The notes below the pieces were generated by a model, which searched no databases, was not told the DNA's origin, and was given only the letters and a program-made list of their open reading frames with translations. Of a stretch of DNA of 64,000 bases, positions 7,098-44,980 are shown piece by piece. Each line of letters opens with the position of its first letter. The first letter of the stretch is position 1. The position numbers were made by a program, and so were the translations under genes. This stretch comes from a virus: the IMG/VR virus record IMGVR_UViG_3300028833_000004. One strand, written 5' to 3'.

Positions 7098-7107
7098 TTT
7101 AAAAATC

Positions 7108-7773
7108 TTAAACGTTTTTATAATCAAGTATTGTTGAAATCTTTTGAGTCTTTCTAATCAACTCCTTAAGTATCTTTCGCTCAGGAAGATCAACCGACCC
7201 CTTAAAAGCAAGCATTAAAAATCCGATCTAATCATTAACCCCTTCCAGACTACAAAAAACAACCTAAGTCATTCCATCTCCAGCCAATTCTCTATATAAT
7301 CCCGGGAAAGTTGTCTATAATTCAGATATATCTTTTATTATATATATGACTTGTTTATCCAACTCATTTATAAAATCTGGAATAGATGAAACCATAATAT
7401 TATCCAAATCCTTACTAAGTTCATCAACTCCTAATTTATTTCTCTATATAACCAGTGAAATATGTAAGAATGGGAGTCCAGTTAAATTATAACCTCCATT
7501 ATGATATTCAAAGATGGCTATACGATCCCCATCGAATTTATTCATAATCTCAGTAAGAAGTCTATTTATTTTAAATATTGAATCTTTTCTAAGTTTGCGA
7601 GCTCCTCGCTTATGTGTCTCAAACTTACCATCTAAAAGAGTTTGAGTTAGAGATTCTACTAGTTTATCTCCAAATTTAAATAATAATAATAAAAAAATAA
7701 TTAGAATAGCCCCAGCTATTCCAAATTGTTCTAAAGCCTAAATAATAAAACCACCTATCTAACTTATATCCAT
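7108..7773 (-). CDS. hypothetical protein with N-terminal transmembrane segment (221 aa), TAG-recoded
   Basis: ATG at 7773, TAA at 7108-7110, 6 in-frame TAG. Hydrophobic stretch GIAGAILIIFLLLF near the N-terminus. Confidence 0.6.
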
Positions 7774-7827
7774 ATCTAAAAATTAATAGTTAAATTACTA
7801 AACCATTAATCCATATTAATCATGGTA

Positions 7828-7835
7828 CAAATATA
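7828..7835 (-). promoter_or_regulatory. Bacteroidota-type -7 box (TAtaTTTG)
   Basis: Reverse complement reads TATATTTG, matching TAnnTTTG, about 55 nt upstream of ATG 7773. No clean -33 TTTG at canonical spacing. Confidence 0.3.
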
Positions 7836-7850
7836 ATAGATTTTCGATAT

Positions 7851-7895
7851 ATAAAAAACAAACAGACGAAATTCAGTAATTCTGAATATCATCTG
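7851..7895 (-). terminator. rho-independent terminator
   Basis: 14-bp imperfect stem 7863-7876/7882-7895, followed on the minus strand by a T-rich run. Lies 20 nt after the stop at 7915. Confidence 0.55.
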
Positions 7896-7914
7896 CTTGC
7901 CATTGTTTAAACCA

Positions 7915-8061
7915 TTAAATTTCAACCGAAAGTAAGTTAATTTCATCAATTAAGTCGAGTATGTTCGTGTTAATTAATGTTTGATTAGATTTAAGTTGAT
8001 TTATTACACACTCAAAATTGTTTTTTATTAACTCTAATTTTCCAATAATATTGTCAGACAT
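7915..8061 (-). CDS. small hypothetical protein (48 aa)
   Basis: ATG at 8061 overlaps the TGA of the upstream gene (ATGTCTGA). TAA at 7915-7917. Confidence 0.4.
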   Translation of the reverse strand: MSDNIIGKLELIKNNFECVINQLKSNQTLINTNILDLIDEINLLSVEI

Positions 8062-8536
8062 TTCCAGTAATTTTTAGAATAATTTGTTCACCTCTATTTT
8101 TTGCCGGTATTAAGTAATTATCCATTAAATCATAAAATGTTTTAACACTTTCCAAAACCTTTCCAACTGCTGTATTTTTCCCAACTATAATACAACCTAA
8201 AGAATCCGATGCAGAATTTCCAGTATGTATTAAAACACCTTCAAAACCAGGAACTCCTAAAAGTCTTGGGATTTTAGAATCATATTTCTTTGCCCATTTA
8301 TATTTAAATGGATTACTATACTTTTTACTAACAGTGTTCATATCTAATACATAAGTTCCATATGGAATAGCTGTCTCTCCATAAACCTTTCTCTTTTTTA
8401 CTTCCTATAAAGGCATAGACTAGACCAATCCTCTATCTGTATCTTCAACCGTATCACAAACGTATTTTCCATTAATAAATAATTTACCAATAGTATAGGT
8501 CGGTTTCTTAAACAGTCTTTTTAACTCCGCTATCAT
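8054..8536 (-). CDS. DUF5675-like protein (160 aa), TAG-recoded
   Basis: ATG at 8536, TGA at 8054, 2 in-frame TAG. Motifs GKLFINGKYVCDTVED, GETAIPYGTY and VPGFEGVLIHTGNSASDSLGCIIVG recalled as typical of this family. Confidence 0.6.
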
Positions 8537-8807
8537 CTTTTTTAGTTTTTCTTCCAACTTTTTTTAAAGGCTTTGGGGAAAGTTGTTTAGCTGCTGCAAT
8601 AACCTCTTCTAGGCTAGTATAAACATATGGAGATGCCTGTGTAGTATCATGCAATACAACGACCCCATTTTTTACTGTGTATACTTTATTTAATGTCTCC
8701 TTAAAAAATCTAATTGGAGATTCTTTAATATTATCCGAAACTGCGGATCTAAAAGTTGGACTTTCCCAACATTTTCTAACAATAAAATCAATAAATTTCT
8801 TTTTCAT
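8508..8807 (-). CDS. hypothetical protein (99 aa)
   Basis: Intact track ORF with ATG start, TAA stop and no TAG. Confidence 0.6.
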   Translation of the reverse strand: MKKKFIDFIVRKCWESPTFRSAVSDNIKESPIRFFKETLNKVYTVKNGVVVLHDTTQASPYVYTSLEEVIAAAKQLSPKPLKKVGRKTKKDDSGVKKTV

Positions 8808-9097
8808 TTTTCCTTATTTACATTATAAAATTTTTTTAATTTTTCTAAATCTTCTTGATTATATGCACATAATACAGTATTAACATTAAGCCTATATGTG
8901 TGTGTATATGGCATCTAATCATAATAATTTGGTTTCTCCTTAATAGGAATTCCTAAGTATTTATTTAATTCCAAATCCAAATTACTTATATCCTCAACTT
9001 CTTTAATTATTTTTGCATCAGGATATTTATTTTTAAGATTTTTAATATTTGGATAAGCTCTAACACAGCCATTTAATTCATATAAACATCCAACCAT
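8804..9097 (-). CDS. hypothetical protein (97 aa), TAG-recoded
   Basis: Track ORF 8915..9097 ends at TAG. The frame continues to a TGA overlapping ATG 8807. Confidence 0.55.
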
Positions 9098-9116
9098 CTG
9101 ATAATCAATTAATTAG

Positions 9117-9189
9117 TTGCCCTGAATGGATTCGAACCATTTCCCCAGCTTTTAGAGAGCCATCAACTAACCATTATTATGACAGGGCA
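9117..9189 (-). tRNA. suppressor tRNA, anticodon CUA (reads UAG)
   Basis: 73 nt. Acceptor TGCCCTG/CAGGGCA. Anticodon stem TGGCT/AGCTG with loop CT-CTA-AA. T-arm AATGG-TTCGAAT-CCATT. GG in D-loop. D-stem weak. Confidence 0.75.
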
Positions 9190-9212
9190 ATAAACCGCCT
9201 AAGCGGTTTATA

Positions 9213-9800
9213 TTAAAATTTAGCTTTCAAGATATTATCATGAAGTTCAAACTCAACATTGTGCATTTTAAGCAGTTCTAGTATAACTGCTGAGAGAAGC
9301 TCAGAATCAGAGATTTCTACTGGTTTATTGAGTTCCAACTCCTTTAAAACATCTTCCACTGAACGCCCCTCCTTAGGAGATTCCTTCTGAGGACAGTATT
9401 CTTTTGGGCATTCTTTAACCTCTTCAGTATCTAGAGCATCAAGAAATGCGTATATAAGTTTCTCAATATCTTTTGCTTCCTTATCTACCTTATTAGGATA
9501 TTCTTCCGTCTGGTGTTCTGTACAAGTAATTTCTTTAAGAGTTTTTGTTAAAAACTCCTTTGCCGGTTCGACATCATTCCAAATAGGATCAACCTTATCA
9601 TCTAAAAAATAACAGGTTAATAACTGCACTGCAGCTTTAAAGTTTTCCAAATCTTTCTCAGTTTTTCCGATAGCTTGTAAGAAGGCCCCAACACCATGAT
9701 TGAAAATAAATTCCTTCTCCTCATCTGAGAACTCGCACATTAGTTCATTTTCAAGAGTTTCAATTTGATTTAATTTAGCAACTGCTTCACAAAATTCCAT
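9213..9800 (-). CDS. acidic hypothetical protein (195 aa)
   Basis: Intact track ORF with no TAG. A hairpin AACCGC-ctaa-GCGGTT at 9193-9208 follows the stop. Confidence 0.65.
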   Translation of the reverse strand: MEFCEAVAKLNQIETLENELMCEFSDEEKEFIFNHGVGAFLQAIGKTEKDLENFKAAVQLLTCYFLDDKVDPIWNDVEPAKEFLTKTLKEITCTEHQTEEYPNKVDKEAKDIEKLIYAFLDALDTEEVKECPKEYCPQKESPKEGRSVEDVLKELELNKPVEISDSELLSAVILELLKMHNVEFELHDNILKAKF

Positions 9801-10012
9801 AAATTTTTAAAATTTTTAATTATTGATTCTTTTAAAACATTAACATTTAACACTAACCACATCCATATGGCAATTATACATTTTTTCATATCACTTCATC
9901 TTTTGTAATACAAAGTTACTACTTTTTTTATAAAATAAATTATCTTTTTTAAAATTTTTCCACTAAAATATATAACAACAGGAGAGAATTATATAATCCC
10001 CTCCTGTAACAA

Positions 10013-10474
10013 TTAATCTTTAAATTTCATCTTCATCTTACTGTAGTTATTAAAATTAATAATAAGATTAGCCCTACAATGTTCGCACATAAACTATTTA
10101 GCAACTGAAAACATTTCTTTGCCTATCTCTCCCTATAAATATTGAAAATCTTCACTATACGGATCAATTTTATAATACTCTGCAATATGTATTGCAGCAT
10201 GTCCTTTTTCATGATCATAAGTATTGACAAACTCCTAGGTAGAATCTGTTAATCCAATCACTATAAATGTAACATGCTTTTCTGCATCTGTATAAGTAAA
10301 TCCAGTATTTAACTCGTAATTTCTAAGCATACTCTCTACCCGATTAAATGTTTTTTCCGGGCAATCGATACTACTTAATTCATCTAATATCTCATCTGTA
10401 TAATAAGTAGTTACAGCATAGAAAATTTTAATAAGCCAATCATATTCTTCTAAATATATAACCTAAACTATCAT
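10013..10474 (-). CDS. hypothetical protein with HExxH motif (153 aa), TAG-recoded
   Basis: ATG at 10474 overlaps the upstream TGA. TAA at 10013. 4 in-frame TAG. Contains the sequence YDHEKGHAAIHI. Confidence 0.6.
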
Positions 10475-10878
10475 AACATATCTGACCATATTATTGGAGT
10501 TCCAGACGCTATACAATCAGCATAATACCTTGTAAAAGGCATCCCATCAGGAGCATCTGGATCATCACAATAATCTTTTATAAATTTTGCTAAATGGACA
10601 TCATCAGAGATAGATGATCCAAGAAAATCTGCTTTAGCCATATTTGCTACATAGATATAATCATAACCCTGTGAATTAGTTAACTTTATATTATACCTCT
10701 CCAGAAGCTAATCTACATCTTCTTTTGTATATGGCTTAATAAATTCCTTCCTACCATTTATATCTTTATACATTTTGGAGCAGGCCCATTCGCACATCTT
10801 TTTACTAAAATGCCACCCATAGAATTCCAGATACTGCTCCATATCCTATGGGAAGGCATTTCTTATATCTAACCTCAT
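10471..10878 (-). CDS. hypothetical protein (135 aa), TAG-recoded
   Basis: ATG at 10878 overlaps the upstream TGA. TGA at 10471. 2 in-frame TAG. Confidence 0.6.
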
Positions 10879-11054
10879 AATCTACTACCCATTCTACGAG
10901 ACATTCGACTACGCTCTCCATAATCAAATTCTTTCATAGCATCTTCATAGCCGTCTTCATAACCACACTCATAGGCCTCAGAATCTTGTTTATAATTCAT
11001 TCTACGGCCATAACGCTGTCCATCAAGCTCTCTAAATTCCCATATTTTATTCAT
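10875..11054 (-). CDS. small hypothetical protein (59 aa)
   Basis: ATG at 11054, TGA at 10875. Translationally coupled on both sides. Confidence 0.5.
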   Translation of the reverse strand: MNKIWEFRELDGQRYGRRMNYKQDSEAYECGYEDGYEDAMKEFDYGERSRMSRRMGSRL

Positions 11055-11586
11055 TATTTTGTCCCTTTCTATTTAATTGTTCCATCAACTATCGATTCAT
11101 TTCCATTAGATCTGATACATTTTTAGTAACATTAGAAAGCTAAGACTTCAATTCATCCATTTCAAGTTGATGTTGCTGTTTATCTGCATACTCAGGATTT
11201 AGGTTCTTAAGAACATTATCACACCCCGCAATAATATTCTTATGCATATCAACGCTATTTATTGCATCTATACTTATCTATTTATAAGCATAAACTTCAG
11301 CGTTCATTGCATCTCTATTATCAGATATTACAACATTTTCACCATTGCAGAATGTGTCCGCAGTGTCCAGGTTTACTGGGATGCTGTTAAAATTTAATAT
11401 CCGATCATTTACTTTGACAACTAAATCAATTACCATTTCCTAAGGCTGCAGATATGGAGGCATCTACTAATTATATGGTTTTGGTTTAGCTATAGGTGCA
11501 TTTGTAACTATACCACGTTCTAATGTTGGGTTTGCACCCTTTTTAAATATATAAATCTAACTATTTTGTCTAAGTGATTGAAACAT
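11047..11586 (-). CDS. hypothetical protein (179 aa), TAG-recoded
   Basis: ATG at 11586, TAA at 11047, 7 in-frame TAG. Confidence 0.6.
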
Positions 11587-20330: not shown

Positions 20331-20675
20331 TTAATCTTTTTTAAATCTTTCTGATAGGCCTTCTGCAATTATCGCTTTAACAGAAACCTCATTTAATACC
20401 CATAGGTCATGCCCAAAGAACGGTGCTGGGAATACAGCTCGATGATCAAATAAAACATCATCTCCAGCTTTTACAAACTCACATTCAGGACCTGCCTCAA
20501 TAACTTTACCAAAAAATGCAGTATTTTCTAATTTTTCAACTAAACCTGAATCGGGATTAACAAAATCCTCTGTCATTTCTACCTCATTTTCTTTTACAAT
20601 CTTTTTATAAGGATTGTCAAAATAAATCTCAATCAAGAGATTATTCATAATTGGATAAATTTCTTTCTCTTCCAT
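20331..20675 (-). CDS. groES: GroES-like co-chaperonin
   Basis: Track ORF. FGKVIEAGPECEFVKAGDDVLF resembles the GroES core. The start overlaps the GroEL stop. No TAG. Confidence 0.6.
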   Translation of the reverse strand: MEEKEIYPIMNNLLIEIYFDNPYKKIVKENEVEMTEDFVNPDSGLVEKLENTAFFGKVIEAGPECEFVKAGDDVLFDHRAVFPAPFFGHDLWVLNEVSVKAIIAEGLSERFKKD

Positions 20676-22135
20676 TATTCATTAACAATTAAACAATTTG
20701 CACTAATTATATTAGTTGCAGCACTAACTGCATTTTCTAAAGTTTCTTTTACTACTAAGTATGGCTCAATAATCCCATTCTCAAAAGCATCTCCAGAAAC
20801 TCCAGTCCTAATATTTAAAACATCCCAATAATCTTCTACACTTCCACTTGAACTCGTTGCCTGATCCAATAGGATTTGTGTTGGGGCATATAAAGCCTTC
20901 TTTAAAAGTGGAACATTTAAATTCTTAGCAGCTTCTCTTAAAGCTTTACCACATCCAGGAAGTACCCCTCCTTTTAAAGCACAAGCTGTAGCTGAAATTG
21001 CATCTTCATATAAGTCACATCTAGTCTTAGCTTCTGTCTCACTATATCCACCTACGAATATTTTAGCAAGCCCACCAGAAAACATTGCAAGACGTCTTCT
21101 ATGAAATTCATACTCAATCTCAGGGAGTGGATTCTCAAGGATCTGTTTTACCATATACTTACGTTCCTCAACGGCCTCTGTATTAGAATTATAGCCTATA
21201 AAGGTTGTATCATCTTTTGTAATGATAACTTTATCACAACACATTGAATCACCTAAAACTGCTTTAATATCTTCTAAAATAGTTTCTCTCATGACTCCAA
21301 ATTCAGGACTTTGGATTAATCCTGCCTGCATTCGCCCACCTTTGTTTGGATCAAACATATTGTGATATATCAACATTGTAATAGAAGAATCGAAATCTGG
21401 GGCAATTAATAAAAGTGATTTTCCTTGATCAATCGCCTTTTGCCAGATCTCTTTAACTTTTCTAGTTTCTTCCATTTTAGTTTGGGAGATATATACCTGA
21501 ACATTATTCAATTCTATATTTCCTTCACTAGTATTGATAAGATATGGGGAAAAGAATCCTGAATTAATTCGAAAGCCTCTGCTGTACTCTATCCTATCAG
21601 TCACGCTCTCACCCTTCTCATATAATACAAGTCCATCTTTTCCAACCTTATCATAAGCTTCGGCAATTGTTTCACCAATCAACTCATCCCCATTGGCTGA
21701 CAATGTTGCAACTTTTTTAATATCTTCTTTATTAGAGATCTGCTTTGTATGTGATTTCAAATCTTCTAAAACCAAATCCCTCTCTTTAAATAATTTTCTA
21801 GAAATTTCTATTGGATTGCCAAAGTTTATATAATCATTTACAATAGCCCTTGTAAGTATTGCGACGGTACTAGAACCATCTCCGACTTCTTTTGCAGTTT
21901 TTACTGAAACTTCTTTAATAAGATCTACACCAGCTTGTATATATGGATCTAGTACTCTAACTGCTTCAGAGACGGTCTTTCCATCTTTTGTTATTTTTAT
22001 CCCAGCAGGATTTTTAATAGCTACTGTTGCTGCATTTGGACCATAAGTACACTGAATTGCATCTGTAATTAAATTAACACCCTCTAATAGTTTTTCTCTG
22101 GCAATCTCACCAATTAATACACAATCATTATTCAT
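20675..22135 (-). CDS. groEL: GroEL-like chaperonin (Cpn60 family, 486 aa)
   Basis: Track ORF. Contains GPNAATVAI..KITKDGKTVSEAV and VGDGSSTVAILTRAIV, compared with GroEL GPKGRNV..TKDGVSVA and AGDGTTTATVLA. No TAG. Confidence 0.8.
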   Translation of the reverse strand: MNNDCVLIGEIAREKLLEGVNLITDAIQCTYGPNAATVAIKNPAGIKITKDGKTVSEAVRVLDPYIQAGVDLIKEVSVKTAKEVGDGSSTVAILTRAIVNDYINFGNPIEISRKLFKERDLVLEDLKSHTKQISNKEDIKKVATLSANGDELIGETIAEAYDKVGKDGLVLYEKGESVTDRIEYSRGFRINSGFFSPYLINTSEGNIELNNVQVYISQTKMEETRKVKEIWQKAIDQGKSLLLIAPDFDSSITMLIYHNMFDPNKGGRMQAGLIQSPEFGVMRETILEDIKAVLGDSMCCDKVIITKDDTTFIGYNSNTEAVEERKYMVKQILENPLPEIEYEFHRRRLAMFSGGLAKIFVGGYSETEAKTRCDLYEDAISATACALKGGVLPGCGKALREAAKNLNVPLLKKALYAPTQILLDQATSSSGSVEDYWDVLNIRTGVSGDAFENGIIEPYLVVKETLENAVSAATNIISANCLIVNE

Positions 22136-32731: not shown

Positions 32732-33180
32732 GTAAGACTCCGAGTGTAATGAGCTCGGGAACAGAAATCATCCCTGTATTGATATTGGTTTATCATACAG
32801 GCCTAAAGTTGGCCGTACATGGACACCACTATGTGTAGGGCCTAAATTAAAGAGCATCATCTCTCTAAACTGTCTAGCGGCTTGACCACATCCTTTCGGT
32901 ACTGGCGGTGAAAATCCAAACCGGGCTAGCAAGCAGCTCATCTTGTAAAACCGAGCCACCTAAGCATTCATATATGTGAGCTTTCGGCAGCAGCATGTAT
33001 GAAAGACGGGCATCCTCAATATGATGTAAAACTATTGACATCAGATAAGATGTAAAAATCCCCACTACCGGGGTGACATGGTACTCGGATTGTTAATTGT
33101 CTGGCCGAGCGGACTAGAGCAGTTCTTGACCCACGGGCTGTCGACGATCCACATTTTATGTGGATATTTTGGGTATTCAT

Positions 33181-33849
33181 ATGGCAACAAAGAATATTAT
33201 TGCCGAAGTAATTAATGCGAGCAAAGATGCTCGCCAATTTAGTGAGGAAGAGCTTCAAAAGAAGCTTGCCTCTCTAAATGGGCGAGATGGCTCGCCCCTC
33301 AAAGCCGAAGAGGAGCTTTGGCTCCTCCCGGTGCTCCTTCCAAGCTGGAAGTGGAAGGGCATTGAGGGTGAATACCCTGCACTTCCAGCCATCAACCAGA
33401 ACGGACACCTGGTCGTAATAGGTCTTGGAAGCCTCGCTGGAGGTTCTGGGTACCTAGAGGATCCAGGCGAAGGAACCTGGGAAATTTCGGAGACCGGATG
33501 GTGGTATCTAAAACCGTCTGAGGTCCCCGAAGGTGGTAGCAGGGCCACCAAAGTCTGGGGGTTGTCGAGGAGTCTTAAAGACTCATTCAACGACAACCTC
33601 GAGCTCAGAGGGGTCGTATCCCTCAAAGTAGAGGAGGACGGCTATTGTTACGGGCCGAGGCTCGTAAAGGCCGGGAGTCCCGACGAGGGACGAGAGAGGG
33701 CAAGCCTGCGCTTTAAGCGCAACACCCATTTCTGGGAAGGCAAGGCCCAGCCAATAACCGCCATTCCGAGCAAACTTAAAAAGTTTGCAGAGAAGCTGGG
33801 TTTACCGATGGAATGGCTAAAACCATTCCCAGCTGACTTCTACTGCTGA
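33181..33849 (+). CDS. hypothetical protein (222 aa), starts MATKN
   Basis: Track ORF 33160..33849 trimmed to the ATG. Followed by a strong terminator. Confidence 0.65.
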   Translation: MATKNIIAEVINASKDARQFSEEELQKKLASLNGRDGSPLKAEEELWLLPVLLPSWKWKGIEGEYPALPAINQNGHLVVIGLGSLAGGSGYLEDPGEGTWEISETGWWYLKPSEVPEGGSRATKVWGLSRSLKDSFNDNLELRGVVSLKVEEDGYCYGPRLVKAGSPDEGRERASLRFKRNTHFWEGKAQPITAIPSKLKKFAEKLGLPMEWLKPFPADFYC

Positions 33850-33970: not shown

Positions 33971-34639
33971 ATGGCAACGAAAAATTCGTATCTGGGTGAA
34001 AAATTCAACCCAGCAGATGAGAGCGATCGTGCTCTCAAAGACATGAAGGCACTCGAATCAGTTAATTTTGAGCGCCAAGCTCCATTAACTGAAGGTGCAA
34101 CTTATATCCTCCTACCGCAGGAAAATACAGCGGCTGTATATACTATCCCAGGAGTTGGTGATAGAGTTTCTCGCCGATTCTGGGCAGTTGAGCTTAACCG
34201 AAAGAATGAGCCTGTATCTATACGTAGTATAGGCTATTCATCGATAGCCAAAATGGGATATCAAGAAAAGACTTCAGCTCAACCTGCTGCACCAGAGGTT
34301 CCTGCATATCAGGATAAAGAAGGAAAATGGCACCCGAAACGTGGGTTAAGTTATGTGTTCTCATGCGAGGACCACAACTTCATTAAGGCAAACCCAGAGA
34401 CAATGCTTATGGAGATAAAGACTCCTACGGCATTGAAAGTGATGCGTAGAGCCGAAGTGTGGGTTGCATCCTTTAAGGATCAAGCATTAGTAGTAAAGGA
34501 CGGGATGATTGTTCCTGAAGTAGATGACCGATTCGTGTTCTTCAAAACCCTCGTAGCCCCAACTGAAGATATAGTTGAGGCTTGCAAAAAGGTCCTTGAA
34601 AATGAAGACTCAATTCAAGACTGCCTTTACCTGTTGTAA
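33971..34639 (+). CDS. hypothetical protein (222 aa), starts MATKN
   Basis: Track ORF. Same length and same first 5 residues as ORF 33181. Confidence 0.65.
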   Translation: MATKNSYLGEKFNPADESDRALKDMKALESVNFERQAPLTEGATYILLPQENTAAVYTIPGVGDRVSRRFWAVELNRKNEPVSIRSIGYSSIAKMGYQEKTSAQPAAPEVPAYQDKEGKWHPKRGLSYVFSCEDHNFIKANPETMLMEIKTPTALKVMRRAEVWVASFKDQALVVKDGMIVPEVDDRFVFFKTLVAPTEDIVEACKKVLENEDSIQDCLYLL

Positions 34640-35330: not shown

Positions 35331-35581
35331 ACTCATACCACTGTGATAGGTGGTATGGGTCCTATCTTGCTTTCTGATATACAATCAGTGGACAACTGCT
35401 TACTTTGAAGAATAAAGGTATGGCAAGAGCTGCACTCTTACTAGGTTCTTGAGTGATAACTTCAAAGCGCTGCGTTTATTAGAGCGTGGAAACAGAAATC
35501 TAATACTCTATTTCTTATTCAGAGTATAACTGAATATATCCCATCCGATGGTAGTGAAAACGATGTAAAACTAAACCTACC

Positions 35582-35607
35582 AATTTTTATTAACAATCTA
35601 AAAATTA
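35582..35607 (+). promoter_or_regulatory. conserved 26-nt early leader/promoter motif, copy 1
   Basis: aatttttattaacaatctaaaaatta lies 8 nt before ATG 35616. A near-identical copy sits at 35993-36018. Confidence 0.4.
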
Positions 35608-35615
35608 TTAGTAAT

Positions 35616-35984
35616 ATGCAAACAATTATGTATCAAGATGAAAAAGGATATAGATATATCCCAGTTTTCCAACCAGAGTTATCAAACTTGTTTGAATATA
35701 CTCGAAAAAAAGTATATCACATCTATACAGATAATCCTAAATGGTGTGGAAAAATATTACCAGAAGTAGTAAATGACACATCTATAGACGTAGGTACAAG
35801 AACTTATTGGCTGGAGAGAACTAATAACTCCATAGAGTGGGGACTAAAACCTTATCACAAGATATCATTTAAAGACATTGAAGAATTAGATGAAGATATA
35901 TGTGAAATATATAATTTTGAGTCAATTGGAATTGATTCAAGTGGAGTTTATGAATATGAAATTATCTATCCCTATGATGATTAG
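35616..35984 (+). CDS. hypothetical protein (122 aa)
   Basis: Track ORF. Terminates at TAG (35982-35984). Confidence 0.65.
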   Translation: MQTIMYQDEKGYRYIPVFQPELSNLFEYTRKKVYHIYTDNPKWCGKILPEVVNDTSIDVGTRTYWLERTNNSIEWGLKPYHKISFKDIEELDEDICEIYNFESIGIDSSGVYEYEIIYPYDD

Positions 35985-35992
35985 GGATAGAT

Positions 35993-36018
35993 AATTTTTA
36001 TTAACAATTTAAAAATTA
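35993..36018 (+). promoter_or_regulatory. conserved 26-nt early leader/promoter motif, copy 2
   Basis: aatttttattaacaatttaaaaatta lies 6 nt before ATG 36025. Confidence 0.4.
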
Positions 36019-36024
36019 AAAAAT

Positions 36025-36324
36025 ATGAAAAAAGTATATAACGTTGTTCATCACTATGATGTTGATGGCGGAATTGGATATGCCATCAGTCAAAAAGAAG
36101 TTCTATTTATAACTTCTGTCAAAAAAGTGGCAGAAGAATTTATAGATAAATATTCCCATGATCATGTCTATGATGTTCCATATTCAGAACTTCATATGGG
36201 ATTATTAAAAGTGGAAGAATTCAATGTAATAGAATCTTGGGAGGATATCCCCAAAAATATAATTGAATGGGGAGATGAAAACAAAAGTGAGACAGACAAC
36301 TATAATCCGGATGACTATCATTAA
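36025..36324 (+). CDS. hypothetical protein (99 aa)
   Basis: Track ORF. Confidence 0.65.
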   Translation: MKKVYNVVHHYDVDGGIGYAISQKEVLFITSVKKVAEEFIDKYSHDHVYDVPYSELHMGLLKVEEFNVIESWEDIPKNIIEWGDENKSETDNYNPDDYH

Positions 36325-36382
36325 GATTATGAGTTTTCTATCTCAGACTGGTTAGATTGGTAATTATTAAAATATATAAATT

Positions 36383-36601
36383 ATGAAGAAGATATTGAAT
36401 TATATACTGTTGTACGGCACAATAGTGTACAGCTTGCTATTTTTAATGGCGGCAGAGTCATTAATCGAAAGCCTTCCCGCAATAGCCTGTATTATGATTT
36501 TAATACAGGCAACATTAATATTCTTATGTATAGGAATATTTGGAGATGGAAAGTGGCGTGAATATGTACCTAAATGGATAAGTAGGATGGATGAAGATTA
36601 A
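36383..36601 (+). CDS. small membrane protein (72 aa)
   Basis: Track ORF with two hydrophobic helices. Confidence 0.6.
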   Translation: MKKILNYILLYGTIVYSLLFLMAAESLIESLPAIACIMILIQATLIFLCIGIFGDGKWREYVPKWISRMDED

Positions 36602-36804
36602 TTAAATCATGATATATCCTTATATAATGAAACCCTTTTTGACTAACCATTTATGGAGGAATAAATGGAAGCAGGTAAGAAGACATAATAGAAATTGACC
36701 AATTTTCATTATCCTGAGGATCTGGGTACACACAGTATCCTGAAAGTCTTCAATTTGTTCCTAAGAGAGTGATATCTGTTAGGGGCACTAACCCTGCAAA
36801 GGGA

Positions 36805-36878
36805 TTTGTCGTATTAATTTGTGTTTTTCCTGTCGAGAGAGTCTTAATCCTTATTTGGTTGGAAGATGGTTTAGAAGA
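36805..36878 (+). repeat. 74-bp border repeat, order A(36 nt)-B(38 nt)
   Basis: A is tttgtcgtattaatttgtgtttttcctgtcgagaga. B is gtcttaatccttatttggttggaagatggtttagaaga. Both recur at 38350-38423 in swapped order. Confidence 0.9.
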
Positions 36879-37101
36879 CATGCGCGTGCGGTTATATAAG
36901 TAGTGTGTCTTCCGAGTAGTGTGTCTTGCGAACGACTCGGATGAACGACTACAAATTAACGTTTTTTTAGTAACTTGTTTGGGCATGTTAAGTCTTGGTG
37001 TTGATTTCATGTTCTCGAAGTGTCCGTTTGAGGTATATTCGGACGATTTTTATATTACTATTTCAAAAGTGGAGGCACCACGATAAAAACTGTTTATTGT
37101 T

Positions 37102-37383
37102 ATGTATTTATTGAACGCATTTAGTTTGCAGATGGTGGAAACACCTGTATCTGTGAAATTTTCTGAAATAGAAGTGAACGAATTGCCCAAAGAATTAACA
37201 TCAGCCATCGGGCATGCGGATACTGCTGCTGTTCTTGGTGTTGAATGCAATCGCATAAATGTTAAATTAGCAAAAGGCGATACCGCATACGTTGCCCAAC
37301 TGATGGGCGGACGACTCCCCGAAGGGAGCACAACTCTCCCCGAAGGATTCCACTTCAAGTTTATTAAGGTGGACGTTGAATAA
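37102..37383 (+). CDS. acrIII-1: DUF1874 / AcrIII-1-like viral ring nuclease (anti-type III CRISPR), 93 aa
   Basis: LLNAFSLQM, SAIGHADTA, CNRINVKLAKGDTAYVAQ and GGRLPEGSTTLPEG match recalled hallmarks of SIRV1 gp29 / STIV B116 (NAFSINM, IGHxSTA, NR..GD, RLEEG). Confidence 0.7.
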   Translation: MYLLNAFSLQMVETPVSVKFSEIEVNELPKELTSAIGHADTAAVLGVECNRINVKLAKGDTAYVAQLMGGRLPEGSTTLPEGFHFKFIKVDVE

Positions 37384-37499
37384 ATCCCTTATTCAAAATA
37401 ATCAATACGTCAAAGAGCTAATAAATAGGATTTTTGACTAAAATGACAAATCATAAATCCTTAATTAAAAATTACTTATATTTATAAACCTACAATCAA

Positions 37500-37925
37500 A
37501 TGCCATTTAATGAGATGTGGGAAAGTTTAGTGAATATGTATAAGAGTACTGTAATGTTTCTCCGCTCAAATCGGAGAAATCGTCAAACAAAAATGACGAG
37601 GGGCGAATATTGTCCAGGAGAGCTTAAAAGTTCTCAGGCAATTCGCCAAATACTTTTTGATTTGAGAGGTAAGTTAATTCACTTTCCCAAGGATTCTTGG
37701 GTGTACTACATCTTAAGAGACCTTAAGATGGAAGAGTTCCGAAGAGGTGAAATAACCTACTGGAGATGTTGCCCGTACTTTGAGAGGGTGTACATTAACT
37801 TCAATGATGAAGCTAATTGGAACGAACTCCAAAGTACAGGTAAACTCTCCTGGGCTCGGGATGAGTATATATCATGGCTAAAAGCTGTGATGCCGCTCCG
37901 TTCTGAGATTATCCAGGTAGAGTGA
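37500..37925 (+). CDS. hypothetical protein (141 aa)
   Basis: Track ORF downstream of the acr-like gene. No recognised motif. Confidence 0.5.
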   Translation: MPFNEMWESLVNMYKSTVMFLRSNRRNRQTKMTRGEYCPGELKSSQAIRQILFDLRGKLIHFPKDSWVYYILRDLKMEEFRRGEITYWRCCPYFERVYINFNDEANWNELQSTGKLSWARDEYISWLKAVMPLRSEIIQVE

Positions 37926-38219
37926 TCTCCATCGGAGTTCCCACTACAGCAATGTGAATGGCAAGAGAGTGGGTGAAAGAGAGTTGCCCGCTGGTCACGT
38001 AAGACCACAGTCGAAGGTTACACGGAATCTTAAAGATGTAACCGAGTATTTAAAGTTGGGGACAAGTGATTGGTTTTGCTTGTACTTTCTAAATGGGTGT
38101 ACGCCATTCCGTCGGGAATAGTATTCTACTACCATTCCTTGTAAACGACCCGACGCTAAATAATAAACGTTCGACAACGGAAGGACTTGTGCTATCAGGC
38201 TGAACGGGCGGAAATATAG

Positions 38220-38260
38220 CAATCGCATGGGTTAGGTGCGTCCGTGCGGTTGCTTTTTTG
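38220..38260 (+). terminator. rho-independent terminator
   Basis: 9-bp stem GCAATCGCA/TGCGGTTGC (one G-U) at 38220-38228/38246-38254, then T6. Confidence 0.6.
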
Positions 38261-38349
38261 TTATGCACCAAAACGATTTGAACGGATGAAGAGTCTGAAA
38301 ATTTGGCTTGTCAATGTATCTAATTGGCAAGTTGTAGAACATTGCGGCG

Positions 38350-38423
38350 GTCTTAATCCTTATTTGGTTGGAAGATGGTTTAGAAGATTTGTCGTATTAA
38401 TTTGTGTTTTACCTGTCGAGAGA
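38350..38423 (+). repeat. 74-bp border repeat, order B(38 nt)-A(36 nt)
   Basis: B is identical to 36841-36878. A differs from 36805-36840 at one base. Confidence 0.9.
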
Positions 38424-38480
38424 CAGTAAGATCCTGTTGTGAAACAGTGTCTCTGGCATTTTAGATGTTAATAATATACG

Positions 38481-38603
38481 GGTATAGGAGTTTGAATACT
38501 CCCATACCTCCTAAAGTAATAAAGTTGTTAAAACTTTGCTGAGGCCGAATATACTCGCTTAGGCTTTGTTACTTGGGTATAGAGATTTGGTTATCTCTAT
38601 ACC
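38481..38603 (+). repeat. two related hairpins (GGTATAGrAG...CTCyATACC)
   Basis: Hairpins at 38481-38508 and 38576-38603 share stem sequence and the flanking TACCTyCTAA. No T-runs. Confidence 0.6.
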
Positions 38604-38697
38604 TTCTAATTTAATTGAAGAATTTATTTGTTGTTTATTGGGTTGTTTTGTTGAAGTTTGTCATGAGGATTACTTAATTGGGGTTAAGTAATCAGAA

Positions 38698-38727
38698 CTC
38701 TCCCCTGAAATATGGGGAGAGTTTTAT
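38698..38727. terminator. bidirectional terminator hairpin
   Basis: Stem CTCTCCCC/GGGGAGAG at 38698-38705/38714-38721. Abuts the stop of the minus-strand gene at 38724. Confidence 0.6.
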
Positions 38728-39476
38728 AAAACTATATCTTGAAAATTAACTTTATTTTCTTGTATATGTTTTACCAGTGCATTAATTGTTTTAGATTGAT
38801 GTTCTAACTTCTCTTGTAATTGTTTATATTTAAGAGATAAATCATCATGTTCTGATTGTAGAGATTCAATTTTAGAATCTGTTTCTAAGAATTTAAGAGC
38901 AATAGTATTGGCGAATTCATTAAAATTATATATTCGCTGGTAATTACATTCTAAATCAGTATGCCCATTATCTGGGATTTTTACCAATATATTTTTATCT
39001 TCTAAGGATTTCTCATATTTTTGTAAAGTTCTGGGATCTATATTGAGATAATTTGCTAATTGTTTATTACTATATGTAATAATTCCATTTTGTGCAACTG
39101 GATCTTTAAACATAAATTGTTGACTCATTACAATCATCGACTTATCTCTAGAGGATAAATTAGAATCATTTAGAAAATCAAAAGAAAATATTTCAAATTT
39201 ATTATAATCATTAAAGGTATATATAGAAGATGTGCCAGGTCTCTTAGTTATATTAATATATCCTGCATTTTCTAACCTTTTAAGTCCATTTAAAATAGTT
39301 TTTCTATCTAATTCGGAATCTTTTACAATAGTGGAAATTTGTGGATATGCCTGTTTTGTTTCTAAATTCATATATTTTTTAATACAGGCATAGATATAGG
39401 GATCATTTAGTGTTAATCCTTGCTTTTTTAAATCCATATTTGGGATTTGTACGTGCTGTTTTGATAATTCATTCAT
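38724..39476 (-). CDS. replication initiator-like protein with two winged-helix-type domains (250 aa)
   Basis: Track ORF. Contains YPQISTIVKDSELDRKTILNGLKRLENAGYI and NKQLANYLNIDPRTLQKYEKSLEDKNIL. Divergent from the adjacent iteron array. Confidence 0.55.
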   Translation of the reverse strand: MNELSKQHVQIPNMDLKKQGLTLNDPYIYACIKKYMNLETKQAYPQISTIVKDSELDRKTILNGLKRLENAGYINITKRPGTSSIYTFNDYNKFEIFSFDFLNDSNLSSRDKSMIVMSQQFMFKDPVAQNGIITYSNKQLANYLNIDPRTLQKYEKSLEDKNILVKIPDNGHTDLECNYQRIYNFNEFANTIALKFLETDSKIESLQSEHDDLSLKYKQLQEKLEHQSKTINALVKHIQENKVNFQDIVL

Positions 39477-39630
39477 AATAACTTTTATTTTTTACAAAAT
39501 TACTAAAATATAAATATATAAAAAAGATAATGTTATTATTTTTAAAATAATCTAAAGAAGTTATTATTATTGCATAAATGTAATTAGGTAGTGTAATTTT
39601 TGTAATTATATTGGGAATTAAATAAACTTA

Positions 39631-39724
39631 TTGGTATTGGTATACAAATTCGATACTACCCTATGCAAATTCGATACTACCCCCCTATGCAAAATTGGTA
39701 CTACCCTATGCAAAATTGGTACTC
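39631..39724 (+). repeat. iteron array (4 x about 21-24 bp), origin-like
   Basis: TAT(A/G)CAAA(A)TT(C/G)G(A/T)TACTACCC starts at 39641, 39662, 39686 and 39707. Followed by AT-rich direct repeats at 39725-39760. Confidence 0.7.
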
Positions 39725-39846: not shown

Positions 39847-39919
39847 GCCGCAATAGCTCAATGGATAGAGCAACTGACTTCTAATCAGTAGGTTGTAAGT
39901 TCGATTCTTACTTGCGGTA
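39847..39919 (+). tRNA. tRNA-Arg (TCT)
   Basis: Acceptor GCCGCAA/TTGCGGT. D-stem GCTC/GAGC. Anticodon loop CT-TCT-AA. T-arm GTAAG-TTCGATT-CTTAC. Confidence 0.85.
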
Positions 39920-39990
39920 CTAGGGAGAGAGGAGTATCTCCACCCTCAAACACTCCCAACTGCTTACTAATCAGTTAAATATATTTTTTT

Positions 39991-41199: not shown

Positions 41200-42174
41200 A
41201 TGAAAATATTAACAGAAAGAGATGTGAATAAGCATGGCTGGGGTATAGTATCGGTAATTACATCCGACATGCTAGAGAAATATGGGTATACACAAATTGG
41301 AGATTATGCTTTTTGGGGCGATGATCTTGAATCAATCATAATACCTAATAGTATAACAAAAATTGGAATTGGCGCGTTCAGAAATTGTCCTAAACTGACT
41401 TCAGTAACAATCCCCAATAGTGTAACAATTATTGACTCTAGGGCTTTTTTAAATTGTAGTAATTTAACCTCAATCAAGATTCCAAATAGTGTAACAGGTA
41501 TTGGTATACATGCTTTTAATGGTTGTTCTAATTTAACTTCAATAGTAGTAGAAGCAGATAATCCAAATTATGATAGTAGAAACAATTGCAATGCTATAAT
41601 AGAGACTGCTACAAACACTCTTATCGCTGGTTGTAAAAATACAATTATTCCCAATAGTGTAACAAATATTGGAAGTTTTGCCTTCTATAGCTGTGATGAT
41701 TTGACATCTATAATAATTCCCGATAATGTAATTAGCATTGGAGATGATGCTTTCTGCAAAACAGGTTTGAAATCCATATCTATTCCAAATAGTGTTACAA
41801 GCATTGGATATTGTGCTTTTAAGGATTGTAAAATTAACATACCTAAAAAATATGATAGTCTGGGTAGACTAATTGCATATAAAGGATTTGATTCTAAGAT
41901 GCAATGTTATGATCATTTTCAATACATTGAAGGACATACTTATAAAACTTCTGAAGCTATATTATGTGAATGCGGATTCCACGCTTGTACTAATCCCTTA
42001 GATATATTTTCTTATTATTTCGGAAGAATAAATAAAAATGTATATATACATGAGGTATATCTTGATGATGTAAGTACTGAAAAGGGTACGGATAGTAAGG
42101 TTGTATCTAAGAAAATAACTATTGGTCGAAGATTAACCATTGAAGACATAAACAATATAATACAAGAAAAATAA
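41200..42174 (+). CDS. BspA-type leucine-rich-repeat protein with conserved Cys/His C-terminal domain, paralogue 1
   Basis: Repeats IPNSVTxIGxxAFxxCxxLTSI. C-terminus [46 protein letters not shown]. Confidence 0.75.
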   Translation: MKILTERDVNKHGWGIVSVITSDMLEKYGYTQIGDYAFWGDDLESIIIPNSITKIGIGAFRNCPKLTSVTIPNSVTIIDSRAFLNCSNLTSIKIPNSVTGIGIHAFNGCSNLTSIVVEADNPNYDSRNNCNAIIETATNTLIAGCKNTIIPNSVTNIGSFAFYSCDDLTSIIIPDNVISIGDDAFCKTGLKSISIPNSVTSIGYCAFKDCKINIPKKYDSLGRLIAYKGFDSKMQCYDHFQYIEGHTYKTSEAILCECGFHACTNPLDIFSYYFGRINKNVYIHEVYLDDVSTEKGTDSKVVSKKITIGRRLTIEDINNIIQEK

Positions 42175-42221
42175 AAAAACATTTGTATAATTCAAAAACA
42201 AAGTAAAAAAAATAAACAAAC

Positions 42222-43070
42222 ATGAAAACATTAACACAAAATAGTGTAATTGAACACGGATGGGATAAATTATCAGTTATAACGGCTGATATGATAGAAA
42301 AATATAGGTATACACAAATTGGGAAAAATGCTTTTAATCATTGCCATAGCCTTACCTCAATTACTATACCTAATAGTGTAACAACCATTGGACTTTATGC
42401 TTTCTATGATTGCACTAATCTTACCTTAATAACCATTCCAAATAGTGTAACAAAAATTGGGGATTATGCTTTCTATAATTGCCGTAGTCTTACCTCAATA
42501 ACAATACCAAATAGTGTAATAGCCATTGGGTGTTGGACTTTTTATAGATGTAATAATCTTACCTCAATTACTATTCCAAATAGTGTAACATACATTGGAA
42601 ATGGTGCTTTCTATCATTGCAGTAATCTTACCTCTATAATCATACCTAATAGTGTAACAACCATTGAAGATGATGCTTTTGCTGATTGTGGAATAAACCT
42701 GCCTAAAAAATACGATAATCAAGGTAGGTTAATTGCATATAAGGGATTTGATAAACACATGCAATGTCGTGGTTTTCAATACATTGAGGGTGAAACCTAC
42801 GAAACAGATAAAGCTAAGTTATGTGTATGTGGTTTTCATGCTTGTACAAATCCTCTTGACATATTTAACTATTATGCTGGTGAAATAAATAATAAAATGT
42901 TTATTCACGAAGTGTATCTTGAAGATGTAAGTGGTGAGGAAAAAAATGATAGTAAAGTAGTTAGTAAGAAAATAACCATAGGTCGAAGATTAACAATTGA
43001 AGATATTAATAATATATTACAAGATGAAAGAGTTAACACGAGACAATGTAACCAAACATGGATGGAATGA
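42222..43070 (+). CDS. BspA-type LRR protein, paralogue 2
   Basis: Same repeat and C-terminal domain as paralogue 1. Confidence 0.75.
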
Positions 43071-43845
43071 ACTATCGGTTATTACAGCCGATATGATAAA
43101 GGAATATGGCTATACTTCTATTGGAGAATACGCTTTCTATAATTGTAAAAATCTAGTTTCAATAACCTTACCAAATAGTATAACGAATATTAGAAGAAGT
43201 GCTTTTTTTAATTGTTATAAATTAGCCTTTATAACAATTCCTAATAGTGTAATCAGTATTGGAAATTATGCTTTCACATTTTGTCACAGCTTGACTTCGG
43301 TTATTATTCCTAATAGCGTAATAAATATTGGAAATAATGCATTCACTGGTTGTAATAGTCTAACCTCAGTCACAATTGGTAATGGTACAACAGGCATTGG
43401 AGATTGTACTTTTGCTTTTTGCAATAATCTTATTTCTATTATCATTCCTAATAGTATAAAAATTATTGGATTTCGTGCTTTTGGAGGTTGTAAAATAAAG
43501 TTGCCTAAAAAATATGATGCCCAAGGTAGATTAATTGCTTACAAAGGATTTAATAAAAACATGCAGTGTCGTAATTTTCAATATGCGGAAGGACAAACTT
43601 ATGAGACATACAAGGCGGAATTGTGTAAATGTGGCTTCCATGCCTGTACTAATCCTCTTGATGTATTTACTTATTATGCAGGTGAAATAGGTAAAGATAT
43701 GTTTATCCATGAAGTATATCTTGAAGAAGTGAATGATGAAGAAGATAGTGATAGCAAGATAGTTGCTAATAAAATAACTATTGGTAAACGTTTAACAATC
43801 AAAGATATTAATAAAATTATACAAAATGAAAATATTAACAGATGA
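43024..43845 (+). CDS. BspA-type LRR protein, paralogue 3
   Basis: Track ORF 42997..43845 trimmed to the ATG giving [14 protein letters not shown], by homology with the paralogue N-termini. Confidence 0.75.
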
Positions 43846-44571
43846 TGAGGTAATTAAAAATGAATGGAATAAAAAGTCCATTATCACCTCCCATATGATA
43901 GAAAAATATGGATACACACAAATTGGAGATCATGCTTTTTTATTTGCCACAATCTTACCTCTATAACTCTTCCAGATAATATAACTAGTATTGAAGCTTA
44001 TGCTTTCTATGGTTGTAACAGGCTGACTTCGGTCACAATTGGCAATAGAGTAACAAGTATTGGAAAGTGTGCATTCGGAAATTGTAAAAAGCTTGCATCT
44101 ATAAATATACCAAATAGTATAATAAGTATTGGAGATTATGCTTTCCATGATTGCTATGGGCTTACTTCGATTGTTATATCAAATAATGTAACAAATATTG
44201 GATGTGGTGCGTTTAGAACAGGTAAATTAATAATTCCTTTAAAAAAATATGATAATCTAGGCAGGTTAATTGCTTATAAAGGTTTTCGTAGAGATATGAC
44301 TTGTCTTGGTTTTCAATACGAAGAGGGAAAGACCTTCGAAACAAATAGAGCAAAGTTATGCGAGTGTGGATTTCATGCTTGTATCAACCCATTGGATGTT
44401 TTCAATTACTATTATGGGAAAATAAATGAAGATATAGTTATTCATGAAGTATATCTTGAGGGCGTATCAGAAGATTTAAGCCCATTTTTATATGATAGTA
44501 AGGTCGTTGCAAAGAAAATCACTATTGGCAAAAGATTGTCTATAGAAGACATTAATAAAATTATACAATAA
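43826..44571 (+). pseudogene. BspA-type LRR protein, paralogue 4, interrupted by a -1 frame change at a T6 run
   Basis: ATG at 43826 ([14 protein letters not shown]). The frame breaks at GCT TTT TTA (43934-43942). The -1 frame from 43942 restores ICHNLTSITLPDN and joins track ORF 44296..44571. Confidence 0.65.
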
Positions 44572-44581
44572 AATAAAAATT

Positions 44582-44980
44582 ATGTGTTTACTAGATACTA
44601 AAAGAATAAGATTTACAATCTTCCCAAAAAAAGTATATAAGATCGTATATGTTGAGGATGGGTGTTATTATTCTCCTTACAGATGTATCGATGTTAAACT
44701 AATGCAGGTGCAATATCCATACTTTAAAAATGTAGAACCATCTGTATTACACGGTGAAACAGAACTTTATGAATTCGGAGATGGATTTGTATTTGGATAT
44801 ACTGATTTAATAGAAGCTATATATGCGAAACACAATCTTGAAAGACAACATCCAAGATTTGAATATGTAATAATAAAAGGTATAATACCTCCATTTACAA
44901 GATATGCTCGTGAAGACCGTTATCCTCTATCCGAAGTATGTGCTAGAAAAATGTTTTGGTATAAAGTGTTAGGAAGATAA
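44582..44980 (+). CDS. hypothetical protein (132 aa)
   Basis: Track ORF. Confidence 0.6.
   Translation: MCLLDTKRIRFTIFPKKVYKIVYVEDGCYYSPYRCIDVKLMQVQYPYFKNVEPSVLHGETELYEFGDGFVFGYTDLIEAIYAKHNLERQHPRFEYVIIKGIIPPFTRYAREDRYPLSEVCARKMFWYKVLGR

Follow-up and report, generated by a model that had tools for sequence, protein, structure and literature searches.

What does a small gene of the DUF1874 family do in a phage that carries it between two exact copies of a CRISPR repeat, and how did the repeats come to lie there? The locus belongs to a stretch of 64,000 nucleotides (nt) from the IMG/VR virus record IMGVR_UViG_3300028833_000004 (hereafter the window), in which a preliminary description, made from the letters, had singled out a product of 93 amino acids (aa) as a likely AcrIII-1-like ring nuclease encoded in a cassette of its own. 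Our analysis makes it quite likely that this protein is a working ring nuclease for cyclic tetra-adenylate (cA4), used by the phage against type III CRISPR immunity. The argument proceeds from the protein to the repeats that bracket its gene, and then to what these repeats may be.

The DUF1874 gene and its predicted enzyme

Translation of the gene returned the 93-aa open reading frame (ORF) together with every motif quoted in the preliminary description, that is NAFSLQM (residues 5-11), SAIGHADTA (34-42), NR (50-51), GD (59-60) and RLPEG (71-75), the last being followed by a second LPEG at residues 79-82. In a Pfam profile search, residues 1-76 matched PF08960 (STIV_B116-like, DUF1874) with 34.9 bits (E 1.8e-8), above the curated gathering cutoff of 26 bits, and a match to phrog_5063 (8e-16) was obtained with the PHROG profiles. 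A sequence search of the PDB retrieved AFV3-109, SIRV1 gp29, the H47A-cA4 complex 6scf and STIV B116. The two comparisons that the preliminary description had proposed, to the family profile by HMMER and to the AcrIII-1 structures, were thus both positive, the latter also by the structural matches given below. In a collection of 5.8 billion proteins, 2319 relatives were found, many at 70-80% identity, which fall to 1444 representatives at 50% clustering; all 120 of the relatives listed carry PF08960. Of the proteins encoded by phages in GenBank, the nearest to it comes from Thermoanaerobacterium phage THSA-485A, a DUF1874 protein with 55% identity along its full length (E 8e-27), which in a plasmid challenge abolished cA4-dependent, not cyclic hexa-adenylate (cA6)-dependent, type III immunity (AcrIII-1-defining paper). 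Judged by its sequence, the 93-aa enzyme is therefore a further phage member of the already well-described AcrIII-1 anti-CRISPR family.

The predicted structure points in the same direction. An AlphaFold2 model of the single chain, built on 73 diverse relatives, had a mean pLDDT (predicted local distance difference test) of 97 and a pTM (predicted template-modelling score) of 0.86. When this predicted, not solved, structure was compared with the PDB by Foldseek, the significant matches were only 6scf, 2x4i, 2j85, 2j6b and 8y7g/8y7f, with template-modelling (TM) scores of 0.64-0.74 on the query length, and the next match had an E-value above 2. The AcrIII-1-family chains (6scf, 2x4i, 2j85 and 2j6b) were matched with E-values of 7e-7 to 7e-5 and a probability of 1.00, while 8y7g and 8y7f were matched through the Crn2 domain of Csx1-Crn2. 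The predicted fold is that of the AcrIII-1 family and is unrelated to CARF.

The active site could be read from the alignments. In SIRV1 gp29, H47 is the conserved general acid, its replacement in H47A lowers catalysis more than 2500-fold, and cA4 is contacted by N8, S11, N13, S49, T50, R66, Q81 and R85 (AcrIII-1-defining paper). H38 of the window protein aligns with H47 in both HMMER and MAFFT alignments, so that the conserved histidine, whose absence would have spoken against the preliminary assignment, is in place. Kept residues (SIRV1 gp29/window protein) are N8/N5, S11/S8, H47/H38, T50/T41, R66/R51, Q81/Q66, R85/R71 and E88/E74, and two cA4-contact positions are changed (N13 to Q10 and S49 to D40). 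H38, R51, R71, E74, N5 and T41 are invariant in an alignment with SIRV1 gp29, AFV3-109 and THSA-485A; R51 also shows no variation among the 73 diverse relatives, in at least 90% of which N5, S8, H38, Q66, R71 and E74 are conserved. H38 is thus the predicted catalytic histidine, and N5, S8, T41, R51, Q66 and R71 are the predicted contacts to cA4.

By analogy with the SIRV1 gp29-cA4 structure, two subunits of the window protein would form a homodimer enclosing one cA4 molecule, over which the loop carrying R71 and E74 would close. The ribose 2'-OH would then attack in line while H38 of each subunit protonates the leaving group, and the ring would be cut on both sides to inactive A2 products. In the infected cell, the enzyme would remove the cA4 that Cas10 makes once the type III complex has detected phage RNA, and CARF effectors such as Card1/Can2 would never be switched on. 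Dimerisation, cA4 cleavage and early expression are what we infer for the protein from these comparisons and from the place of its gene.

This place is the genome of a large phage. The window DNA recurs at 100% identity in a 117-kb Joint Genome Institute (JGI) contig, in a 158.6-kb European Nucleotide Archive (ENA) contig and in several short contigs of other samples, and the occurrence of an identical sequence in independent assemblies from several samples shows that it is not an assembly artefact. The window contig carries phage markers (a portal, a large terminase, GroEL, tRNAs and a TAG-recoded structural block), and the region 35500-39500 had no match in a DNA similarity search of GenBank phages; nor did searches of IMG/VR retrieve the phage itself. 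From 1 to 31 kb, long structural and late genes, including those for the portal and the large terminase, lie on the minus strand and can be read only with TAG as a sense codon (the gene at 3459-7157 has 30 in-frame TAGs among its 1232 codons). Together with a suppressor tRNA for this codon (Table 1), they indicate a stop-codon-recoded phage of ~158 kb. From ~33 kb on, the genes are on the plus strand and contain nearly no in-frame TAG; the DUF1874 gene, which has none, stands inside this standard-code block. Where phages have a recoded stop codon, it is generally their late genes that are recoded, and the standard-code position hints at early or middle expression of the DUF1874 gene.

Type III CRISPR repeats around the gene

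The separate, GC-richer cassette seen in the preliminary description was recovered, with edges that are exact 37-nt repeats. The guanine-plus-cytosine (GC) content is 0.433 in the gene and 0.407 in the segment between the repeats, compared with 0.328 in the window and 0.25-0.32 in the flanks. The two copies of the repeat (R) lie 1509 nt apart, start to start, and bracket a segment (X) of 1471 nt; no exact direct repeat of 37 nt is expected by chance according to shuffles. A spacer-like segment (H, TCTCTCGACAGGAAAAACACAAATTAATACGACAAAT) adjoins each copy of R directly on the outer side, so that the whole reads H-R-X-R-H (Table 1). The sense strand of R, set from the leader side and the degenerate last repeat of the array described below, is the minus strand of the window and is antisense to the DUF1874 gene; on that strand the elements follow one another as H-R-[antisense X]-R-H. 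No conserved neighbour of DUF1874 was found in 58 other loci (36 IMG/VR viral loci and 22 genome loci); since DUF1874 is the only gene that these loci have in common, it behaves like a solitary accessory gene that moves horizontally. On this ground and on its GC content (0.41 as against 0.33 in the phage), the cassette appears to have been acquired horizontally.

Table 1. Positions of the cassette elements and of other features of the 64,000-nt window.
Feature	Position	Strand	Remarks
CUA-anticodon tRNA (suppressor tRNA)	9116-9189		
GroEL-type chaperonin	20675-22135	-	phrog_5725, E 2e-87; no in-frame TAG, unlike its neighbours
Outer flank H, copy 1	36803..36840		~37-nt, spacer-length segment abutting the outer side of R copy 1
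CRISPR repeat R, copy 1	36841..36877	-	reads CTTCTAAACCATCTTCCAACCAAATAAGGATTAAGAC on the minus strand; 224 nt upstream of the ATG
Palindromic TTATATAA, then two tandem 16-nt units (AGTAGTGTGTCTTCCG / AGTAGTGTGTCTTGCG)	36892..36930		between R copy 1 and the gene
AcrIII-1/DUF1874-family ring nuclease gene (predicted)	37102..37383	+	ATG start, TAA stop, 93 codons (93 aa)
orf141	37500..37925	+	no Pfam or PHROG match; itself its sole match among 5.8 billion proteins
Conserved non-coding 3' region	38058..38272	+	common to locus L069; from terminator scan and nucleotide identity
Hairpin	38058-38086	+	
Strong terminator-like hairpin with T-run	38218-38254	+	between the DUF1874 gene and the right-hand repeat
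CRISPR repeat R, copy 2	38350..38386	-	identical to copy 1; starts 966 nt after the stop codon
Outer flank H, copy 2	38387..38423		abuts the outer side of R copy 2; 1 mismatch to H copy 1
DnaD/replication-initiator-like gene	38724-39476	-	~1.3 kb downstream of the DUF1874 gene
38-nt iteron-like direct repeats	39641-39723		in an AT-rich stretch, GC 0.21-0.25
tRNA-Arg(TCT)	39847-39920		

The repeats could be assigned to a CRISPR system. In a scan of public metagenome contigs, the core of R occurred 13 times at a spacing of ~75 nt in one contig (Ga0326513_10000242, locus L065), where it forms a 14-repeat array with spacers of 32-40 nt and a degenerate last repeat. The consensus of this array, CTTCTAAACCATCTTCCAACCAAATAAGGATTAAGAC, is identical to R at 37 of 37 positions. 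Upstream of the array lie genes for a Csm5-type RAMP (repeat-associated mysterious protein) protein, an AbiEi/AbiEii pair and a TIGR02221 CARF protein with a DxTHG motif. The stretch upstream of the array further encodes a protein with CARF_Card1 and Card1-endonuclease domains (matching Card1 6wxw at E 1e-24 and Can2 7bdv at E 5e-13), Cas1, a CRISPR-associated primase-polymerase (PrimPol), Cas2 and a DUF7017/TOTE-domain protein. A syntenic operon in a second locus (L066) comprises Cas6b, Cas10, Csm2, Csm3, Csm4, Csm5, the CARF protein and Card1; identity between the two loci is 68% for Csm5 and 82% for Card1, and it is from this synteny that a Cas10 is inferred for L065. The repeat family to which R belongs (37 nt, ...CTTCCA-N7-AAGGATTAAGAC) is also found in the arrays of two other Csm/Card1 loci (L067 and L068). 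Card1 is an effector activated by cA4. Can2 is activated by the same messenger. The identity of R with the L065 repeat therefore places the repeats of the window in a type III-A-like system with effectors that cA4 would be expected to activate.

Several details of L065 were recorded in passing. The primase-polymerase gene (7061-8098, NF040562, E 1e-114) stands between Cas1 and Cas2, the gene for the DUF7017/TOTE S1-CSD protein (8555-10012) adjoins the array leader, and the AbiEi/AbiEii pair is inserted between the Csm5 and CARF genes. The named relatives of the L065 Csm5 come from Paludibacteraceae genomes; the exact protein was not found in the protein collection searched.

Altogether, these results favour a cA4-degrading anti-CRISPR enzyme, and a number of points weigh against it. 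Compared with its family, the window protein is trimmed and lacks two loop/helix segments (the archaeal viral proteins have 109-122 aa); it is this trimming that keeps the structural overlap at a TM of ~0.7, short of near-identity. Cas10 was not seen in L065, whose examined stretch starts at Csm5. No spacer of the arrays in L065, L067/L068 or L063 (a further locus, described below) matches the 64-kb window, and what points to the owner of an L065-type array as the host is the identity of the repeat. The preliminary description had advised a search of candidate hosts for type III loci with CARF effectors: a repeat-identical array beside a Csm locus with Card1/Can2 and CARF genes was found, whose owner is a candidate host. 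Finally, SIRV2 gp37, which is closely related to the type enzyme, has no anti-CRISPR action in native infection, being expressed too late, and instead binds a host methyltransferase.

The last precedent bears directly on the alternative that the ring nuclease fold has no anti-CRISPR function in this phage, the protein being expressed late, serving another role or being the product of a passenger gene. The apparently recent acquisition of the cassette, and a neighbour (orf141) that has no relatives, would also fit with it. We nevertheless consider this improbable: the catalytic histidine and most of the contacts to cA4 are retained, the clade is a large one on which constraint is strong, with DUF1874 as a lone gene across unrelated phages, the gene stands outside the TAG-recoded structural block, and the repeat match points to a defence system that uses cA4.

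Origin and possible role of the bracketing repeats

The flanking repeats and the duplicated H are most simply read as the footprint of the acquisition of the segment. A phage carrying H would have recombined with a host array at a spacer identical to H, which would have left the phage genome flanked by copies of H and by repeats; exit by recombination between non-adjacent repeats would then have carried along the segment lying between them. In its strict form, this explanation makes the repeats recombination scars and nothing else, without function in the phage, left by the capture of a host crn2-type gene via spacer H, and we give it slightly less than an even chance. Being a statement on where the cassette came from, it leaves room for an anti-CRISPR action of the enzyme. 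Integration and excision of this kind predict the observed order H-R-X-R-H, in which H meets R without a gap on either side, and the GC content of X (0.41) resembles that of host loci (0.37-0.41 in L065, L066 and a third locus, L043) rather than that of the phage (0.33). Recombination between spacers and protospacers has reportedly been observed between phages and CRISPR loci.

Two other loci support such an origin. In the first (L063), an array of 23 repeats with a divergent form of the repeat family of R (only the 3' end is kept) stands ~2.8 kb from a DUF1874 gene of 70% identity, which is found among DUF7017 and PIF1 genes that are typical of these CRISPR loci and in a neighbourhood that looks like that of a host. 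The second (L044, a contig of 144 kb from a Bacteroidales bin) has a DUF1874 gene of 69% identity placed between two identical 38-nt repeats (ACTCACAAACCTACTTCCACTAAAACAAGGATTAAGAC), a different member of the repeat family, in the same sense as the gene; the outer flanks are copies of one another (~410 nt, 80-91% identical) and abut the repeats exactly. The topology of the window thus recurs in L044 around another DUF1874 gene and with its own repeat variant. Among the 58 other loci, CRISPR-type repeats were found to flank DUF1874 only in L044, most short flanking repeats having the look of ordinary intergenic elements. The L044 cassette (9475-11446) is flanked by two copies of one 332-aa gene, a truncated 5' one and a full one, and its context looks bacterial, with a YceG gene and an Endonuclease_NS gene nearby. 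Elsewhere, the DUF1874 flanks of locus L062 (9953-9988 and 10698-10733) contain CTGAYGAG...CGAAAC, the core pattern of hammerhead ribozymes.

Capture through a spacer meets several difficulties, however. No array holding H as a spacer was found in L065 or in IMG/VR, nor any host locus with DUF1874 directly between two repeats. The outer flanks of L044, at ~410 nt and 80-91% identity, cannot be explained by a spacer. Moreover, the repeat pairs are perfect in both genomes, in contrast to the diverged flanks of L044, a hint that the repeats are subject to selection or homogenisation. H itself had no match in IMG/VR, and its use as a spacer, leader or promoter target in L065 was rejected (no match longer than 10 nt).

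The repeats could alternatively be functional, as RNA anti-CRISPRs (Racr-type) or as crRNA-like RNAs (resembling CRISPR RNAs) that bind Cas6 and Csm subunits. Minus-strand transcripts would then soak up or misdirect the type III machinery of the host, and the locus would join a protein inhibitor with an RNA inhibitor. Viral solitary repeat units are significantly enriched within 1 kb of predicted anti-CRISPR (acr) genes, and several of those tested inhibit CRISPR (Camara-Wilpert et al. 2023). This known enrichment agrees with the situation in the window, where two copies of a repeat identical at 37 of 37 positions to that of a type III array lie less than 1 kb from an acr gene. Single units of the repeat family of R, with no DUF1874 nearby, are also present in other viral contigs of IMG/VR, the pair is perfectly conserved both in the window and in L044, and the left unit, read on the minus strand, has a repeat and then 37 nt, as in a type III crRNA precursor. 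Against this, R has its sense strand opposite to that of the acr gene and of all its neighbours from ~33 to 38 kb, and a consensus scan revealed no minus-strand promoter upstream of either unit (the consensus may not fit the promoter type of the host). The candidate units of Camara-Wilpert et al. (2023) cover all CRISPR-Cas types except VI, but the nine units tested include no type III unit, according to the text. The 37-nt segment beside the left unit, furthermore, matches the second copy in the phage and as a guide would target the phage itself. A functional RNA therefore seems to us rather unlikely on balance; it is compatible with the scar explanation, and the repeats may additionally be transcribed as decoy RNAs.

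We also considered that the repeat copies are attachment or homology sites, through which the phage or the cassette inserts into host CRISPR arrays and disrupts them. Viral integration into arrays has been suggested as a role of solitary repeat units (Camara-Wilpert et al. 2023). We regard this as very improbable here: no integrase was seen among the annotated ORFs near the cassette, the genome looks like that of a large lytic phage with its own replication initiator, and with the copies in direct orientation, recombination between them would delete the cassette. In favour of it, prophages are reported to integrate into CRISPR loci, and insertion here would resemble their integration into CRISPR repeats.

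Other arrangements were rejected on inspection. Two contigs (L005 and L006) begin and end in R, as a free 1.5-kb circle would, and this is also how de Bruijn assemblies break at 37-nt repeats. Degenerate third repeats, which would make mini-arrays of the units, were dismissed, local alignment scores being below the shuffle mean; with no second repeat beyond H, even a degenerate one, neither unit is a mini-array. The removal of the cassette does not restore a gene, the rebuilt junction (p1-H-p2) being intergenic and restoring no ORF. Separately, two contigs from different samples (L082 and L083; samples SRR7634052 and 3300024342) both end at 36757, which is 46 nt before H and outside the repeats. 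This shared end suggests a population variant that diverges there, possibly genomes without the cassette.

The rest of X was examined for further genes and RNAs. The core of X occurs without the repeats in locus L069, where the shared parts are 37065-37376 (the gene and 37 nt upstream of it) and the regions of the 3' hairpin (38058-38086) and the terminator (38188-38272), the middle gene being different; the repeats are thus not intrinsic to the DUF1874 operon. In the window, orf141 was ruled out as a partner protein, for want of relatives and family matches, and may not be a real gene; a search for small ORFs in 37750-38430 gave nothing. The conserved 3' region is 86-88% identical in nucleotides to positions 3001-3234 of L069, with substitutions that keep the terminator stem paired, and also holds a shared motif, TGTGCTATCRGGCTGAACGGGC; a small RNA or a conserved 3' untranslated region may be encoded there. 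On neither strand did 37926-38349 fold with a better energy than shuffled sequence (z about -1.5). When the whole window was searched against Rfam at gathering scores, and 36500-38800 at permissive E-values, only tRNAs and chance-level matches were returned, so that no known RNA family explains the non-coding part of the cassette. The palindrome and tandem units upstream of the gene are a possible promoter or operator, in either direction; a consensus promoter scan found no site there, and its predicted sites were not enriched over shuffles.

Genome surroundings and comparison with known systems

Beyond the cassette, the region downstream with the initiator-like gene and the iteron-like repeats (Table 1) is probably the replication origin, at which gene orientation diverges. 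The other neighbours of the DUF1874 gene are small ORFs with no assigned function. Further to the right (41200-44600, plus strand) is a run of paralogous LRR_5/DUF7666 genes with a mutual DNA identity of 66-84%. To the left, two adjacent ORFs of 222 aa (33160-33849 and 33971-34639, plus strand) both begin with MATKN and are otherwise barely similar (E 0.12); neither has a family match, and the first lies in an island with a GC content of 0.55, the richest of the region, which may have been acquired as well. At the end of one JGI contig (L003), the final 100 nt (2141-2241) are GC-rich and unrelated to the phage, and are probably a chimeric assembly end.

The interesting part of this locus, beyond the enzyme itself, is the repeat-bracketed layout with its duplicated flanks and its recurrence in a second genome; no description of an H-R-X-R-H layout around DUF1874 was found in the searchable literature. 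The exact repeat match ties an uncultured, TAG-recoding phage of ~158 kb to a locus with Csm, Card1/Can2, CARF and Cas1-PrimPol-Cas2 genes, and the phage inhibitor, the second messenger and the effector form a triad that can be rebuilt in vitro. The layout also makes it possible to ask in concrete terms how ring nuclease genes travel from CRISPR loci to viruses or back, and raises the question of whether repeat-mimic RNA decoys act on type III systems. We tentatively propose, while holding it appreciably less probable than its opposite, that H-R-X-R-H, as seen in this phage and in L044, marks a general way for genes to leave or pass through arrays, Crn2 being caught in the act of becoming an anti-CRISPR, and/or that the repeats are the first type III RNA decoys, working together with a protein inhibitor.

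Among known systems, the acr-racr loci (Camara-Wilpert et al. 2023) likewise have exact host-type repeats, borne by a virus, within 1 kb of an acr gene. In the window, by contrast, two copies bracket the acr gene in antisense, each with a spacer-length outer segment, and the repeats belong to a type III family, for which no functional Racr test was found reported. Virus-borne mini-CRISPR arrays resemble the window in having host-identical repeats and a spacer-sized segment; they differ in that the units of the window have no repeat beyond H and that the 'spacer' matches the phage itself instead of a competitor.

As for the protein, the closest counterpart is that of THSA-485A, which is also single-domain and encoded by a bacteriophage, and both carry NAFSLQM, SAIGHADTA, NR, GD and AQLMGGRLPEGSTTLPxGF. 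The window protein is 9 residues shorter than its 102-aa relative, with small deletions after strand 1 and after the helix of the catalytic histidine. The carriers differ as well, a ~158-kb TAG-recoding metagenome phage in one case and a 42-kb phage of a thermophilic Firmicute in the other, and CRISPR repeats flank the window gene whereas none appeared in a scan of the flanks of the THSA-485A gene (L021). SIRV1 gp29 (2x4i; 6scf with cA4), STIV B116 and AFV3-109 have the same fold and share the catalytic histidine and most cA4 contacts, at 26-30% identity in structural alignments; they are archaeal-viral and the window protein is bacterial-viral, and the C-terminal element of the latter is, in contrast to theirs, predicted to be a strand. 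Crn2, the cellular DUF1874 protein of type III loci (Csx1-Crn2 fusion, 8y7g and 8y7f), has the same domain (Foldseek TM ~0.7). The window gene differs from it in being phage-borne, with no cas genes seen nearby and no fusion to an effector, and while Crn2 resets immunity, the window protein would be expected to defeat it.

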